From positions 14,442 through 78,441 of the forward strand of contig CAMKEH010000005.1 of the NCBI GenBank assembly GCA_946411515.1: a DNA stretch of 64,000 nucleotides, read 5' to 3'. Positions 40,388-44,191 of the stretch are shown here, in pieces; the first letter of the stretch is position 1; every line of letters begins with the position of its first letter. The position numbers and the translations under genes are program-made. This DNA is from an uncultured Clostridium sp. GTDB lineage: Bacteria; Bacillota; Clostridia; TANB77; CAG-508. The notes below the pieces were generated by a model, which worked only from the letters and a program-made list of their open reading frames with translations, was not told the DNA's origin and ran no database searches.

Positions 40388-41164
40388 ATGGAAAATGCGG
40401 TAAAAGCATTGACAATGGCTGGAAGTGTATTAATAGCATTAGTTATAATAGGTGCAATACTATTAGTATTTAATAACTTAAATAGTTACCAAAAAGTTAG
40501 TGATCAACTAAAAAAAGATGAAAAAGTATTAGAATTTAACAACCAATTTGAAACTTATAATAGAACTGATGTTAGAGGTAGTGATTTACTTTCTTTAATA
40601 AATAGAGTCATAGATTATAATGAAAGACAATCTTCTGTAGGAACAGAAGGACAAGATTTAGGGTATAAACCAATTGTTCTTACAATTAATTTGAGGGAAG
40701 CTAAAAAAAATATGGCTCCGCCAATAACTAAAGATGATACTTATAAATCTTTATTTGAAAATTCCTATATGATCTCTGGAACGGCTAATGATGAAAAAAA
40801 AATGCAGGAAGTATTAAATAGGATAAGCGAAATACAAAATGAGTATACCCAAACAGAATTATCAGAACTTACAGCTTCAGCGAGTAGTATATTTATAGGA
40901 AAAAAAACAGTTGATAATGAAAAAGAAACAGAAAAATCAGTAGAAAAATATAATAAAATAGTAAAAAATCAAATAAGTAATTATAGTCAAATAGCACCAG
41001 GTACTAATATTAGAAAAATGATATATAACTATTATGAAAGTATACAATTTAAACGTTCATATTTTGATTGTGTTTCAGAAAATAGTAAATCTTCAGGAGT
41101 TGAATATGATACAAATGGAAGAATTATAAAAATGAATTTCGTTGGAAATGGAAAGGTAGAATAA
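40388..41164 (+). CDS. pilin-like protein, leaderless MENA-type N-terminus
   Basis: AGGAGG-7nt-ATG. MENAVKALTMAGSVLIALVIIGAILLVF, then the shared FNNQFETY...L..LIN.V motif. Confidence 0.6.
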   Translation: MENAVKALTMAGSVLIALVIIGAILLVFNNLNSYQKVSDQLKKDEKVLEFNNQFETYNRTDVRGSDLLSLINRVIDYNERQSSVGTEGQDLGYKPIVLTINLREAKKNMAPPITKDDTYKSLFENSYMISGTANDEKKMQEVLNRISEIQNEYTQTELSELTASASSIFIGKKTVDNEKETEKSVEKYNKIVKNQISNYSQIAPGTNIRKMIYNYYESIQFKRSYFDCVSENSKSSGVEYDTNGRIIKMNFVGNGKVE

Positions 41165-41185
41165 ATTTTTTAAGGAGTTTATACT

Positions 41186-41653
41186 ATGGAAAATGCATCA
41201 AAAGCATTAATAATGGCTGCAGAAGTTTTAGTAGGAGTTTTAATTTTATCATTAATGGTATATTTATTTGTTTCATTTGGATCGAGTTCTGCACAAGTAA
41301 ATGAGCAAATGGATGAAAAAAAATTAGCAGAATTTAATAGTCAGTATGATAAATATAAAGATAAAGAAGATGTTACTATTTATGATATAGTATCTCTTGC
41401 AAATCTTGCAACTGAAAATAATAAATATTATGGATTAGATGAATCTACAGAATCTAATTATTATATATCAATATTGTTAGATAATACTCATTTGGAATTG
41501 AAAGCGTCACAAGAAGATACACAAAATGTGCAAAAAAATAAGATTATAAAAGAAAAAATAGAAAAAGGCGAAAATGTTTTGCAAACATACAAATGTAATG
41601 TTATATATAGTACAATAACTGGAAGAGTCAGAACAGTAAAATTTACAAAATAA
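41186..41653 (+). CDS. pilin-like protein, leaderless MENA-type N-terminus
   Basis: AAGGAG-8nt-ATG. MENASKALIMAAEVLVGVLILSLMVYLF, then the FNSQYDKY motif. Confidence 0.6.
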   Translation: MENASKALIMAAEVLVGVLILSLMVYLFVSFGSSSAQVNEQMDEKKLAEFNSQYDKYKDKEDVTIYDIVSLANLATENNKYYGLDESTESNYYISILLDNTHLELKASQEDTQNVQKNKIIKEKIEKGENVLQTYKCNVIYSTITGRVRTVKFTK

Positions 41654-41712
41654 ATGAAGAAAAATTATTGAAAAAAATATTTTTAAATAGTATAATAGAA
41701 AAGAGAGTTTTT

Positions 41713-42144
41713 ATGAAAAAAATTGCAATTTTCTTTTTCATAATAATAGCTATAATTGCTTTAATTTCATATATGTATATTACATATAAAATGAATTATA
41801 ACCAAGCAAAAAAAGAAAATATAGAATTTGAAAGTTATTATGAACAAGAGATTTATGGAACAGAATTAACAACAATAATTAATAAAGCAATTGATAAAAA
41901 CATTATAAATAAAGTTGAAAAAGACAAAAAAGGGTTTTATATAAACAATGATGAAAATTCAATAAACATTGATATAAAAATAACAGATAATGACAATATA
42001 TATAAAATGGAAACTTTATATCAAGGTGAAATGAAAAAATTTGTTGAATATTATGGACAAGTTAAATTTAAATCTACAAAAATTGAATACCATAATTCAA
42101 CAGGAAAAATAAAATATATGTTATTTGAGCAAATAACAGAATAA
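41713..42144 (+). CDS. pilin-like/minor subunit protein with N-terminal TM helix
   Basis: MKKIAIFFFIIIAIIALISYMYI, then FESYYEQEIYGTELTTIINKAI, which resembles the family motif. Start chosen at the internal ATG. Confidence 0.45.
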   Translation: MKKIAIFFFIIIAIIALISYMYITYKMNYNQAKKENIEFESYYEQEIYGTELTTIINKAIDKNIINKVEKDKKGFYINNDENSINIDIKITDNDNIYKMETLYQGEMKKFVEYYGQVKFKSTKIEYHNSTGKIKYMLFEQITE

Positions 42145-42226
42145 ATAAAGTTATTAAATTTCTATATATCAATATATAGAGTAAATATAAAATATTACAA
42201 AAGTAAAATTTAAGGAGGAAAAAATT

Positions 42227-42616
42227 ATGGAGAATGCAACAAAAGCGCTAATTATAGCGGCAGCAATATTAATCGCAATAGTATTAATATCTTTAGGAGT
42301 ATTTGTTTTAGGACAAGGGACAGAGATGGTAAAAGAAAATAGTGATATGAGCCCTATGCAAATATCAGCGTATAATAGTAAATTTGAATCTTATTTAGGT
42401 GAAAAAGTATCTGGATCAAAAGCAAAACAATTAATTACTACTATTGAACAACATAATAGATCAAATGATTCAACTCAACAAGTTGGGTTTGAGGGGGAAA
42501 TAAATAGTGCATCAAAGATAAATATGGGAAACACATACAAGATAACTGTTCCTAGTAATGGAGGATATTCAAAATCAGGATTAATAGTAAAAGTAAAAAT
42601 AGAAGTAGCTTCGTAA
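42227..42616 (+). CDS. candidate major pilin paralog 1 (MENATKAL...)
   Basis: AAGGAGG-8nt-ATG. The first 36 residues are identical in all three tandem paralogs, with only an E/D change through residue 41. Confidence 0.65.
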   Translation: MENATKALIIAAAILIAIVLISLGVFVLGQGTEMVKENSDMSPMQISAYNSKFESYLGEKVSGSKAKQLITTIEQHNRSNDSTQQVGFEGEINSASKINMGNTYKITVPSNGGYSKSGLIVKVKIEVAS

Positions 42617-42663
42617 TATATATTTTTTAATATTAATAGAGTAATTTGTAGAAAGGAAAAGAT

Positions 42664-43098
42664 ATGGAAAATGCAACAAAAGCATTAATCATAGCAGCAG
42701 CAATACTAATTGCAATAGTACTAATTTCCTTAGGAGTGTTTGTTTTAGGACAAGGAACAGAAATGGTAAAAGATAATTCTGATATGACAGATGCTCAAAT
42801 ATTAGCTTATAATAAAGAAATTGAAGCTTATTTAGGAAAAAAAGTTTCTGCTTCGAAATTGAAACAATTTATTAAATTTGTAAATGAGCATAATAGAAAT
42901 GCTACTGATGAAACAAAAAAAATACAACTTACATCAGGAGGACGTTCAACTATTAATATTACTACTGAAACAGAATATCAATATACTAGTGAAAACGTTT
43001 CAAGTGAATCTGTATACGAAGTAACAGTATGGTCAAACAGTGAAGGATATACATCAGCTGGGTTAATAAAAAAAATTAATATAATGAAGATAAAATAG
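42664..43098 (+). CDS. candidate major pilin paralog 2 (MENATKAL...)
   Basis: Same N-terminal module as 42227 with 14 synonymous and 1 non-synonymous difference in the first 41 codons; divergent C-terminus. Confidence 0.65.
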   Translation: MENATKALIIAAAILIAIVLISLGVFVLGQGTEMVKDNSDMTDAQILAYNKEIEAYLGKKVSASKLKQFIKFVNEHNRNATDETKKIQLTSGGRSTINITTETEYQYTSENVSSESVYEVTVWSNSEGYTSAGLIKKINIMKIK

Positions 43099-43109
43099 AG
43101 GTATAAGAT

Positions 43110-43550
43110 ATGGAAAATGCAACAAAAGCATTAATCATAGCAGCAGCAATATTAATTGCAATAGTATTAATTTCTTTAGGTGTATTTGTTTTAGGACAAG
43201 GAACAGAGATGGTAAAAGAAAATAGTGATATGACACCTGAAGAAGTAACTGCATTTAATAATAAATTTAATATTTATTTTGGAAAAAGAGTAAGTGCATC
43301 TAAAGTAAAGCAATTAGTTAAAGTGGTAAATCAGCATAATAGAAATACAACAGAATCTGAAAAAATAGAATTAAAATCAGTAGATTATGAGACAGGACAT
43401 AGAGTTCTTTTTAAAGATTCAGCAGATGATATAGATTATACAGATAAATATGTAACTGCAAAAGAAACATATTACGTGTATGTAAAAGATGAGGATTATA
43501 CAGCAAATGGTCGTATAAAAGCAATTACAGTACTTACAACAACTAATTAA
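43110..43550 (+). CDS. candidate major pilin paralog 3 (MENATKAL...)
   Basis: Same N-terminal module and a divergent C-terminus. RBS AGAGGT-7nt-ATG. Confidence 0.65.
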   Translation: MENATKALIIAAAILIAIVLISLGVFVLGQGTEMVKENSDMTPEEVTAFNNKFNIYFGKRVSASKVKQLVKVVNQHNRNTTESEKIELKSVDYETGHRVLFKDSADDIDYTDKYVTAKETYYVYVKDEDYTANGRIKAITVLTTTN

Positions 43551-43570
43551 CATAGAAAGGATGATGCTAT

Positions 43571-44191
43571 ATGGAAAATGCAGTAGATGCATTAAAAATG
43601 GCTGCAGCAGTGATGATATTTGTACTTGCACTATCTGTAAGCATTAATGCCTTTTCAGAAGCAAGAATAGCTTCAACAACATTATTAGATTATACAGATA
43701 GAGAATTTTTCTTAGGTAAATCTGATTATTATAATTCAGATACAAAGAATAGGATAGTTGGAGTAGAAACCATTATTCCGGCAATATACAAAGCTTATAG
43801 CGATGAAAGTTATAAATTAGTTTTCTTAAATAATAATGATGAACCAATTGAACTATATAAATTGAAAAGTAGTGGTGAAACAATAAATACAATGGGGTTA
43901 GTGTATGATTCTAAGAGAATAGGTGTATCACCCTCAAATAGAAAAAACTTTATAGAAATGATTTTATATGGAAAAGATAAATATAAATCAAAATATGAAG
44001 AAGATGATACTTTAGCTTCATTACGATCTAAGATAGACTTTACAAATGAAGGTTTATATGATAAAATTAATAATAATAGCTTTGAAGAATCTTCAGGAGT
44101 ATACTATCTAGGTGAAGAAAATGGAAAAAGTAATAGTCCAGAAGTAAATAATCAAAAAATAAGAGTAATAACTTATAAATTACAAAATTAA
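43571..44191 (+). CDS. pilin-like protein, leaderless MENA-type N-terminus
   Basis: MENAVDALKMAAAVMIFVLALSVSINAF followed by a 175-aa globular region. Confidence 0.55.
   Translation: MENAVDALKMAAAVMIFVLALSVSINAFSEARIASTTLLDYTDREFFLGKSDYYNSDTKNRIVGVETIIPAIYKAYSDESYKLVFLNNNDEPIELYKLKSSGETINTMGLVYDSKRIGVSPSNRKNFIEMILYGKDKYKSKYEEDDTLASLRSKIDFTNEGLYDKINNNSFEESSGVYYLGEENGKSNSPEVNNQKIRVITYKLQN

Follow-up and report, generated by a model that had tools for sequence, protein, structure and literature searches.

To our knowledge every characterised type IV filament makes use of a prepilin peptidase, and the bacterial substrates of A24 enzymes almost always carry glycine at position −1; archaeal class III signals (PibD, FlaK, EppA) combine a short leader with K/R at −2 and Gly/Ala at −1, and have no Glu5. 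The MSH pilins possess a normal class III leader, with Gly at −1 and Glu at +5, presumably cut by the peptidase of a co-resident system. The IncI1 R64 thin pilus—a plasmid-borne type IV pilus that supports conjugation—has normal type IVb prepilins and its own peptidase, PilU. Tad pilins, for their part, are made without a C-terminal globular domain (PMC12786226). We describe here a locus, found in a 64,000-nucleotide stretch of DNA from an uncultured Clostridium sp. (the whole stretch being referred to as ‘the window’), that appears to encode an as yet undescribed, very widespread Tad-like pilus machine of gut Clostridia. Its most unusual feature is a set of six ORFs with a common N-terminus, beginning MENA; our preferred reading, to which we give a probability of roughly 0.45, is that these supply the subunits of a Tad-like type IV filament machine that has diverged strongly, and are used without A24 cleavage.

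Gene content of the locus and its relation to described systems

The features of the locus are as follows:

33622..34716, + strand: bitopic protein of 364 aa with a SAF domain, CpaB/RcpC-like, whose gene opens the conserved locus; TIGR03177 pilus_cpaB (1.5e-6) and SAF/ChapFlgA matches, both sub-threshold; present in 70/80 GTDB loci
34739..35437, + strand: conserved cytoplasmic protein, 232 aa, of no known family (no significant Pfam/NCBIfam match); syntenic in every locus examined
35440..36279, + strand: ParA/MinD-like protein, 279 aa, in the TadZ/CpaE position; sub-threshold CbiA/ParA match (0.0014), plasmid homologues annotated ParA
36294..38261, + strand: secretion ATPase of 655 aa, CpaF/TadA-like and anchored in the membrane at its N-terminus; PDB, TIGR03819 and T2SSE matches
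38286..40361, + strand: polytopic membrane protein, 691 aa, in the TadB/TadC platform position; ~8 hydrophobic segments
40388..41164, + strand: MENA-class minor subunit 1, 258 aa, MENAVKAL; orthologues in 80/80 GTDB loci start M-E-N-(A/V/I)-x-K-A-L
41186..41653, + strand: MENA-class minor subunit 2, 155 aa, MENASKAL
41713..42144, + strand: conserved bitopic protein, 143 aa, start MKKIAIFFF (not MENA), a probable assembly component; in 78/80 GTDB loci
42227..42616, + strand: major pilin-like subunit variant A, 129 aa, MENATKAL; homologue set and AlphaFold2 model
42664..43098, + strand: major pilin-like subunit variant B, 144 aa; residues 1–36 as in variant A, remainder 47% identical
43110..43550, + strand: major pilin-like subunit variant C, 146 aa; residues 1–36 as in variant A, remainder 38–45% identical to A and B
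43571..44191, + strand: MENA-class minor subunit, 206 aa, MENAVDALK, with an acidic position 6 and K9; D/E6 class in 76/80 loci
44213..44740, + strand: conserved bitopic protein, 175 aa, start MGDTLITIV; homologues in 91/96 loci, including Bacillales plasmids (MGNPFLKVF and others)
44831..46442, + strand: large bitopic protein, ~547 aa, split into ORFs of 324 and 223 aa that overlap at 45771–45805; a single ORF of 534–543 aa in loci L006 and L039

The order of these genes (SAF, ParA, ATPase, polytopic protein, then the bitopic paralogues) is conserved, and is that of Tad loci. Plasmid homologues of the first protein are annotated as SAF domain-containing; the synteny of the SAF/CpaB-like and ParA-like genes beside the ATPase is likewise conserved, both family matches lying below the curated cut-offs, as do all Tad-family profile matches of the locus, and a PDB sequence search returned no match for either protein. 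The two bitopic genes with other starts, MKK at 41713 and MGD at 44213, belong to the same block.

For the ATPase, the best matches amongst PDB sequences are to CpaF (5e-9, residues 270–539), accompanied by profile matches to the TadA family (TIGR03819, 9e-9) and T2SSE (4e-5), both below curated cut-offs; a Walker A motif, GEQGCGKTT, is present, and the N-terminal transmembrane helix is kept in 42/42 full-length homologues. The hexameric motor expected of a type IV filament system, a secretion ATPase from the GspE/PilB/TadA family, is in place. The 691-aa protein is harder to assign. Its homologues number over 6700, with 84–88% identity amongst the best 120, and a few carry the database names TadB or T2SS F; besides these names, only position and topology favour a platform role. 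No Pfam match, to GspF/PilC/TadB-C (T2SSF) or any other family, was found among 19 diverse homologues, profile comparison with PDB sequences and hhalign against E. coli HofC gave nothing, self-comparison revealed no internal repeat, and a Foldseek search with the AlphaFold2 model (pLDDT 79) returned no match.

Taken against Tad/Flp (type IVc) systems, the locus shares a CpaF-closest ATPase, SAF/CpaB-like and ParA-like proteins, a polytopic protein following the ATPase, several small bitopic paralogues and one large bitopic protein the size of TadG. It differs in that its ATPase is membrane-anchored, its platform candidate is a single protein of 691 aa in which no T2SSF similarity could be detected, and it has neither the Flp G/XXXXEY motif, nor TadE/TadG Pfam domains, nor tadV; a Pfam scan of 127 homologues, drawn from all six accessory families, found no TadE (PF07811), Tad/TadG (PF13400) or Flp match. 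With the ComG pseudopilus it has in common a monoderm host, short leaders and weak ComGE (0.036) and ComGA (3e-4) signals, but it has no G-F-T-L-x-E motif or N_methyl domain, and CpaF, not ComGA, is the nearer relative of its ATPase.

The family is large, with 6404 clusters at 50% identity and a minimum of 490 species loci in GTDB, every one from uncultured Clostridia, and is covered by no Pfam or NCBIfam model. Relatives of the locus are also found on Bacillota megaplasmids (16 copies examined), B. proteoclasticus having two plasmid copies of the system. The plasmid copies are flanked by cell-wall hydrolases, by giant proteins with SLH and DUF5704 domains and by an LRR giant protein; on pCY360 the locus is followed by genes for a VirD4-like coupling protein and PrgI, suggesting a mating-contact role there, a setting reminiscent of R64. 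Unlike R64, the copy in the window is chromosomal, and no conjugation or transfer genes were found near it or near other chromosomal copies in gut Clostridia.

The N-terminus of the subunits

The six ORFs, all on the plus strand, begin at 40388, 41186, 42227, 42664, 43110 and 43571 and share the consensus MENA(T/S/V)(K/D)AL, which runs directly into a hydrophobic segment of ~22 residues (roughly 7–28); the ORF list, the raw sequence and a predicted helix all agree with the initial annotation on this point. The individual starts are MENASKAL at 41186, MENATKAL at 42227, 42664 and 43110, and MENAVDAL at 43571. The first ORF offers two candidate ATGs, at 40382 and 40388 (MQ-MENAVKAL), the latter being the likely start because an AGGAGG box lies 9 nt ahead of it and only 3 nt ahead of the former; Shine-Dalgarno-like boxes 6–9 nt before the MENA starts likewise bear out the proper RBS spacing that had been claimed. 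In all cases the ATG is the earliest ATG/GTG/TTG downstream of an in-frame stop, and since the intervening stretch is only 1–12 codons in the window (reading ‘gvyt’, ‘nitkvkfkeeki’, ‘kgkd’, ‘d’ and ‘cy’), a longer leader is impossible. The survey of homologues that the initial annotation had suggested gave the same answer: 278/289 MENA ORFs from 80 other species begin at the first possible start codon, and all 261 homologues retrieved start MENAxKA(L/Q).

Within these 261 major-class homologues, otherwise <50–60% identical, M1, E2, N3, A4, K6 and A7 are invariant, and all four paralogue classes keep the same length (M-[ED]-[ND]-x-x-[KDE]-A-L); judged by its conservation, the tail would seem to resemble a mature pilin N-terminus more than a leader. 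Other parts of the original description need amending. The statement that there is no positively charged leader was mistaken, K6 being present in 5/6 window proteins, in 74% of MENA ORFs overall and in every member of the major class (100%), whilst the acidic residue described at position 2 occurs in all six window ORFs but has been lost in several plasmid relatives (MGNAQSAL, MSNAQKAL, MNNASSAL). The reported lack of a Flp motif was upheld: a regex scan of window ORFs (G[FMILVY..]..E, G....E[YF]) found neither G/XXXXEY nor G-F-T-L-x-E whilst recovering the E. coli PpdD control, and a Pfam scan found no pilin family, N_methyl or Flp match. Distant versions on Bacillota megaplasmids have tails of only 8–9 residues, and one pCY186 relative, MG-ETVSEY, has the Flp G/XXXXEY motif directly after Met-Gly.

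The six proteins are paralogues (37–100% identical over their first 30 residues versus 20–47% over the remainder), so their common start is not due to chance. Residues 1–36 of the tandem copies at 42227, 42664 and 43110 are identical, though the first 120 nt differ at 9–16 nucleotides; their N-termini are under purifying selection. Multiple paralogous subunits, with a common N-terminal helix and differing C-terminal domains, are found throughout (six in the window, 2–5 per locus in 80 species), and median identity across species falls from 79% for the ATPase through 65% for the platform-position protein to 36–40% for the subunits, a pattern typical of pili. The AlphaFold2 model of variant A (pLDDT 86; 87–93 over the first 20 residues) consists of a helix at residues 2–39 and a small alpha/beta domain, with a low-confidence hinge between them at residues 31–40; a PDB fold search with the predicted domain found no match and no known pilin fold. 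Possession of a predicted globular domain in itself sets the MENA subunits apart from Tad pilins (PMC12786226).

Cleavage, anchoring or direct use of the N-terminus

That no peptidase gene accompanies the subunits, as first reported, was confirmed over a wider range. The window encodes no A24 peptidase, its polytopic ORFs (BacA, DUF1189, Gate and others) having no GxGD motif; a survey of ~90 loci found no A24 peptidase gene within 10 kb, none of the 46 polytopic ORFs there containing G.[GAS]D; none is annotated in the 2.5–9 kb flanks of the 16 megaplasmid copies; and none of the loci yielded a peptidase of archaeal type. The single A24_N protein encountered, in locus L039, lies outside the operon, beyond murC, and has no detectable catalytic domain. 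Saying this, absence from the locus does not imply independence of a peptidase, because MSH loci also have no prepilin peptidase gene and are proposed to borrow one acting in trans (PMC6668835), and the B. proteoclasticus chromosome encodes prepilin peptidases (PMC2914790). Peptidase independence of the MENA subunits is plausible, if unproven.

The suggestion that the subunits mimic a mature N-terminus from their start codon stands as regards the impossibility of an extension and the missing locus peptidase, but is weakened by the fit of K6-A7-L8 to a class III site and the prospect of an enzyme acting in trans. It is quite conceivable, though less probable than our preferred reading, that the same Tad-like machine employs MENAxKA as a very short class III-type leader, cut at A7/L8 by an A24 peptidase (of ComC, PilD or TadV type) encoded elsewhere in the genome, to give a mature start LIIAAA... 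with no Glu5, as in archaeal pilins. K6-A7-L8 resembles a minimal class III site ([K/R]-[G/A], then hydrophobic) placed exactly where the helix meets the cytoplasm, and matches the pattern of archaeal type IV pilins and archaellins; leaders of the ordinary type IVa or ComG kind are likewise seven residues long; across the superfamily nothing is better conserved than [K/R/x]-[A/G]-[L/I], with K6 invariant in the major class; and near the locus in L039 there is a PilD-derived gene, the one whose product has no detectable catalytic domain. Position 6 is K or R in 76% of ORFs, as this pattern expects, but the D/E6 class, conserved in its own right, puts an acidic residue at −2. The reported absence of a Gly cleavage site holds for the nearer family, position 7 of the 289 ORFs being Ala in 99% and Gly in <1% (itself a point against cleavage), but not for distant relatives, where Gly takes the place of A7 (pCY360 MDDNATKGL, C. 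beijerinckii MGENGRKGL, P. urinalis MEESTNTGL, pCY186 MGGSLSEGL), the K-G-L or T-G-L so formed suggesting descent from a cleavable site. Against a leader it also counts that neither its sequence nor its length would vary in any of the paralogue classes, unlike known leaders, including those of archaeal pilins (the hosts here being Bacillota), and unlike MSH pilins its cleavage motif is absent or degenerate, with no Glu at +5 relative to the putative A7/L8 site. In many relatives, moreover, the tail is free of basic residues and K/R comes immediately after A-L, at +2 (MGNAQSALK, MSGSVSTALK, MEENPNLALR), which would fit the cytoplasmic flank of a membrane anchor and not +2 of a mature pilin; and the examined regions of ~100 loci contain no peptidase gene, even in plasmid copies, which usually carry their own.

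A polar tail that is left uncleaved and includes a basic residue is also how an ordinary N-in signal anchor looks, and the MENA proteins might be anchored bitopic proteins, not fibre subunits, that together with the ATPase and polytopic protein form a wall-spanning apparatus: a pseudopilus-like piston, an export/display scaffold for large surface proteins, or a plasmid mating contact. The predicted hinge differs from the classical continuous alpha1 packed on its sheet, the globular domain matches no pilin fold, and the hydrolases and giant surface proteins beside the plasmid copies, like the VirD4-like and PrgI genes of pCY360, would suit such an apparatus. We nevertheless consider it unlikely, given that paralogues with one N-terminal helix and differing C-terminal domains are a hallmark of pilin sets, that the tandem-amplified, fast-evolving major class argues for an abundant exposed polymer, that the ATPase is of CpaF type, and that chromosomal copies in gut Clostridia have no conjugation genes nearby.

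A possible route of assembly

On the preferred reading, that of an uncleaved subunit set, three tandem major variants and three conserved minor classes would be served by the membrane-anchored CpaF-like ATPase, the 691-aa polytopic protein in the TadB/C position, the SAF/CpaB-like and ParA-like proteins and three more bitopic proteins. Each subunit, with its fixed six-residue polar tail (M-E-N-x-x-K/D), A-L and ~22-residue hydrophobic helix, and with no classical prepilin leader, would insert N-in, C-out, a topology that we infer from K6 or K9. The uncleaved tail, with its small-residue face A4/A7/A11, would then form part of the functional N-terminus, acting either in recognition by the platform or ATPase on the cytoplasmic side or in helix packing within the filament core; E2 and K6 (i, i+4) could neutralise each other. 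ATPase and platform would pull subunits out of the membrane and pile them up as a surface fibre, whose exposed C-terminal domains evolve fast; it may serve adhesion and, on plasmids, possibly mating contact.

We venture, tentatively, that here, for the first time in a type IV filament family, subunits may be assembled with no prepilin peptidase at all; the mature N-terminus would be the initiator Met (or, in relatives starting MG, the Gly exposed once Met is removed), and the M-E-N-A-x-K tail would replace the cleaved, methylated N-terminus and Glu5. If so, the platform, subunits and accessory proteins would together make up a new superfamily branch that is abundant both among gut Clostridia and on megaplasmids of Bacillota.

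Translation starts of the MENA subunits

The window has a GC content of 25% and is coding mainly on the + strand. That it carries six + strand ORFs with MENA starts, as the initial annotation had proposed, is borne out by the ORF listing and the raw sequence; the three tandem copies at 42227, 42664 and 43110 (129–146 aa) are here called the major subunit and the remainder minor classes.

MENA ORFs and their first eight residues (ORF listing and raw sequence)
40388, + strand: MENAVKAL
41186, + strand: MENASKAL
42227, 42664 and 43110, + strand: MENATKAL
43571, + strand: MENAVDAL

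In all six, an in-frame stop is followed by 1–12 sense codons and then by the ATG, the earliest possible start; a leader of normal length is therefore not encodable and, with no alternative start codon available, upstream extension and non-ATG initiation are both ruled out. An ATG at 40382, 5' of that at 40388, is an unlikely start because it lies just 3 nt beyond an AGGAGG box. The ATGs sit at proper distance for ribosome binding, as had been stated, with Shine-Dalgarno-like boxes 6–9 nt upstream; the accompanying claim that there is no positively charged leader fails, as Lys6 is found in 5/6 of the proteins. The same block also encodes bitopic proteins that start differently: MKK (41713), MGD (44213) and MKLQN (44831).

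The six MENA proteins are paralogues, with 37–100% identity in the first 30 residues and 20–47% in the remainder. Across the tandem copies (42227–43550) the first 36 residues are identical even though the DNA differs at 9–16 of the first 120 positions, which points to purifying selection on this N-terminus, and not to recent gene conversion. The 82-nt gap 5' of the first major subunit gene contains a perfect 9-bp inverted repeat, TCTATATAT-ca-ATATATAGA (42161–42180), that could be an operator or merely an AT-rich palindrome; a promoter/terminator scan of the window gave no signal above expectation at this base composition (111 sites versus 115 expected).

The filament locus and its nearest known relatives

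The subunit genes form the 3' end of an operon-like block beginning at 33622, which follows the Tad gene order and in which all family matches fall under curated thresholds.

Genes of the block ahead of the subunit genes
33622–34716: SAF-domain protein (CpaB match below threshold)
34739–35437: 232-aa protein, no family
35440–36279: ParA/CbiA-like protein (match below curated threshold)
36294–38261: 655-aa ATPase (CpaF the only PDB sequence relatives, E = 5e-9; best NCBIfam match the TadA family)
38286–40361: 691-aa protein with about eight hydrophobic segments

CpaF is the motor of the Tad pilus. [quoted passage not shown] The best-supported reading takes the MENA proteins as putative subunits, major and minor, of a Tad-like filament machine that is driven by a CpaF-type ATPase and has diverged strongly. 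The Tad/Flp pilus is the closest known system but, in contrast to it, this locus fails the Flp, TadE/F/G and TadV tests and has no demonstrable T2SSF platform; for these reasons it is not filed as a Tad pilus, but is placed more broadly within the type IV filament kind.

The tests in question covered both membrane and accessory components. Kinship of the 691-aa polytopic protein, which occupies the TadB/TadC platform position, with T2SSF (GspF/PilC/TadB-C) found no support in five of them: Pfam gave no match in 19 diverse members, the family profile matched no PDB sequence, hhalign against E. coli HofC was negative, no internal duplication of the GspF type was seen, and Foldseek with an AlphaFold2 model (pLDDT 79) was also negative; a few database records label its homologues as TadB or T2SS F. 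For the accessory proteins, membership in TadE/F/G or Flp was rejected, six families (127 sequences) returning no match to TadE, TadG, Flp or N_methyl. For the 129-aa subunit, an AlphaFold2 model built on a 60-sequence alignment (pLDDT 86) has a helix at residues 2–39, a low-confidence hinge at 31–40 and, after it, a small two-helix, four-strand domain; a known pilin fold is not recognised, with a best Foldseek E of 0.67 against the PDB and no match of the sequence profile to PDB sequences.

The ATPase carries an N-terminal transmembrane helix (36294–36380) that is present in 42/42 full-length homologues from Clostridia, Bacillales plasmids and Butyrivibrio pCY186, and missing from the versions on C. 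botulinum, C. argentinense and C. beijerinckii plasmids; a membrane-anchored TFF ATPase is unusual. Downstream, two frameshifts fall within 1.4 kb. The large bitopic protein (44831–46442) is split into ORFs of 324 and 223 aa that overlap at 45771–45805 in an A-rich run, and is unsplit (534–543 aa) in the Lachnospiraceae locus L006 and the rabbit-gut locus L039. A SpoIVB-like gene (PDZ + peptidase S55; 46498–47734) is split into ORFs of 215 and 207 aa by what looks like a one-base insertion, an extra C near 47119 whose deletion restores WVRDSAA-GVGTVTFY; this gene is whole in the related loci L004 and L039 (407–413 aa) and identically split in L002, a public ENA contig with an identical major subunit; it could be a true pseudogene or an assembly error.

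Also nearby are a 183-aa coiled-coil protein (47895–48446) with four tandem HMLIDEQNKEM-like units and no family match and, on the opposite strand 2 kb upstream of the locus, a 446-aa protein (30079–31419, - strand) with a VWA domain and a GBS104-like tip-pilin Ig domain, resembling the tip adhesins of sortase pili. Elsewhere the window carries the genes of an ordinary clostridial chromosome (hibernation factor, HAD hydrolase, RecN, WhiA, BacA, SpoVG); a phage origin was dismissed, there being no tblastn match among 50,697 phage records.

Conservation in gut Clostridia and on megaplasmids

A 90%-clustered database contains 280 close homologues of the major subunit, whose profile finds 6404 clusters at 50% identity (2905 with E <= 1e-10), none with a Pfam domain or an informative name. 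A survey of homologues for the same start, as suggested at the outset, returned M-E-N-A-x-K-A-(L/Q) in 261/261 retrieved sequences, and the best 150 profile matches all align residue 1 to residue 1. Scanning one genome per GTDB species gave at least 490 loci. Every one of the best 80 comes from uncultured Clostridia (sampled from human, Hadza, rabbit, mouse, chicken and rumen sources), and a closed 1.57-Mb MAG (OZ007016.1) is among them. The whole gene set recurs across these 80, the ATPase at a median identity of 79%, the polytopic protein at 65% and the subunits at 36–40%; each locus has 2–5 MENA ORFs, 278/289 of which use the earliest possible start codon. In the database, the polytopic protein is 84–88% identical in its best 120 relatives and the major subunit 40–64% in its own best relatives, a contrast in rate consistent with diversifying pressure on an exposed subunit.

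When orthologue classes are chosen by whole-protein BLAST, independently of the motif, four classes share the start M-[E/D]-[N/D]-x-x-[K/D/E]-A-L at equal length; upstream-extended homologues with a Gly cleavage site, which the initial annotation had named as evidence against its reading, did not appear among these, the longest departure being a single residue in 1/~300. In the MENA ORFs, positions 7 and 8 are nearly fixed (Ala, 99%, and Leu, 97%) and position 6 is mostly K (74%) or D/E (20%); the D/E6 form is a separate conserved minor class with K9.

The gene order is shared with megaplasmids of Paenibacillus, Cohnella, Thermobacillus, Lysinibacillus (including pBsph), Cytobacillus, Sporosarcina and Alkalihalophilus, as well as of Butyrivibrio (pCY186, pCY360), C. 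argentinense, C. beijerinckii and C. botulinum; the carriers in C. botulinum and C. argentinense are neurotoxin plasmids. Cultured hosts include P. polymyxa M1 (pPPM1a), L. sphaericus C3-41 (pBsph) and B. proteoclasticus B316. First subunits here start MGNAQSAL, MSNAQKAL, MNNASSAL, MSTNASKAL, MSGSVSTAL, MKESTSTAL, MSETTATAL, MDSVTKAI, MEENPNLAL, MEESTNTGL, MGENARKAL, MGENGRKGL, MDDNATKGL or MGGSLSEGL. Judged from these starts, the entire superfamily has a very short tail, 8–9 residues long, and a long leader occurs in no member. The acidic residue at position 2, present in the window's six, is not universal (e.g. MGNAQSAL); best conserved is a small residue (Ala, at times Gly) followed by Leu/Ile, and many relatives have K/R directly after this pair and no basic residue before it. 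A second subunit-like gene on pCY186 (L098:10181–10597) starts MG-ETVSEY-MHMVVATIV, with a Flp G/XXXXEY motif right behind Met-Gly; this hints that the family may derive from Flp-type prepilins through leader loss, and could also have arisen by chance.

Flanking the plasmid loci L098–L101 are NlpC/P60 and SleB-type cell-wall hydrolases together with GGDEF, SLH and DUF5704 proteins (including SLH + DUF5704 giant proteins), and directly after the pCY360 locus (L102:13116–17584) lie a VirD4-like coupling protein and a PrgI-family protein. These contexts suggest that the plasmid copies are tied to conjugation, and make a role in cell contact or transfer possible; for the chromosomal copies of gut Clostridia, which are without such neighbours, adhesion is our default guess.

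Processing of the subunits

The missing peptidase gene, which the earlier proposal would explain, holds at the level of the locus. The GxGD motif is absent from every polytopic ORF in the window (five candidates: BacA, DUF1189, Gate, PIG-U-like and one without a Pfam match), G.[GAS]D was found in 0/46 polytopic ORFs within 10 kb of a subunit gene across about 90 loci, and 0/16 plasmid regions had an annotated peptidase. A Pfam scan of 19 plausible polytopic ORFs returned one A24_N_bact protein (9e-25), a 270-aa polytopic protein in the rabbit-gut Clostridia MAG (L039:16511–17320), with no GxGD and no match to the Peptidase_A24 catalytic domain even at E <= 10; it adjoins the locus beyond a convergently transcribed murC, has no relative in the other loci compared, and may be a degenerate PilD. 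A hidden A24 peptidase among the membrane proteins of the window or the flanks of related loci is thus rejected. The SpoIVB-like protease is an unlikely processing enzyme: it occupies the usual spoIVB place relative to recN (28040–29671), which suggests inherited synteny, is missing from L006 and all plasmid copies, and is frameshifted in the window; we regard it as a neighbour, not a component.

Cleavage of the leader by an A24 peptidase is seen as a defining step for all type IV filaments (pili, type II secretion pseudopili, competence pili and archaella), and to our knowledge every known TFF system uses a prepilin peptidase. Set against this, the proposal of leaderless subunits stands in part: leader and locus peptidase are both lacking, but Lys6 is present and the acidic residue is not universal. 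We put the probability that the subunits are used unprocessed at about 45%. Every paralogue class has an invariant tail of the same length, like a mature pilin N-terminus (leaders differ among the pilins of one system); Ala, not Gly, is fixed before the helix; D/E occupies the would-be -2 position in one class; many relatives have K/R at the would-be +2; there is no Glu at +5; and even mobile copies come without a peptidase.

The same observations count against cleavage in trans at A7/L8, which we tentatively rate as somewhat less probable than the unprocessed reading; in its favour are the use of a peptidase in every known system, the placing of K-A-L exactly at the position of a class III site, the presence of Gly there in distant members and a tail as long as ordinary short leaders. 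Peptidases can, moreover, be obtained in trans: MSH loci are without a peptidase gene and are thought to borrow one (PMC6668835), and B. proteoclasticus B316, which has two plasmid copies of the present system, has chromosomal prepilin peptidases (PMC2914790). It is improbable, in our estimation, that the MENA proteins instead remain membrane-anchored as part of a wall-spanning apparatus, an arrangement for which the plasmid contexts (cell-wall hydrolases, SLH + DUF5704 giant proteins, and the VirD4-like and PrgI proteins beside the pCY360 copy) argue.

A full-text literature search returned no description of this system; it is undescribed in the literature found, and there is no curated family model for either the subunits or the polytopic membrane protein. 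As these membrane and subunit proteins are without a Pfam/NCBIfam model, the system probably escapes the tools now used for annotation and for finding TFF loci. It is also relevant to gut microbiology: uncultured Clostridia of the gut and rumen carry it in at least 490 species-level genomes, and metagenome protein clusters that contain it number in the thousands. A large natural family that dispenses with cleavage, or one in which the site is Ala and the 7-residue tail never varies, would, if confirmed, show which part of leader cleavage the extraction of subunits from the membrane really needs.
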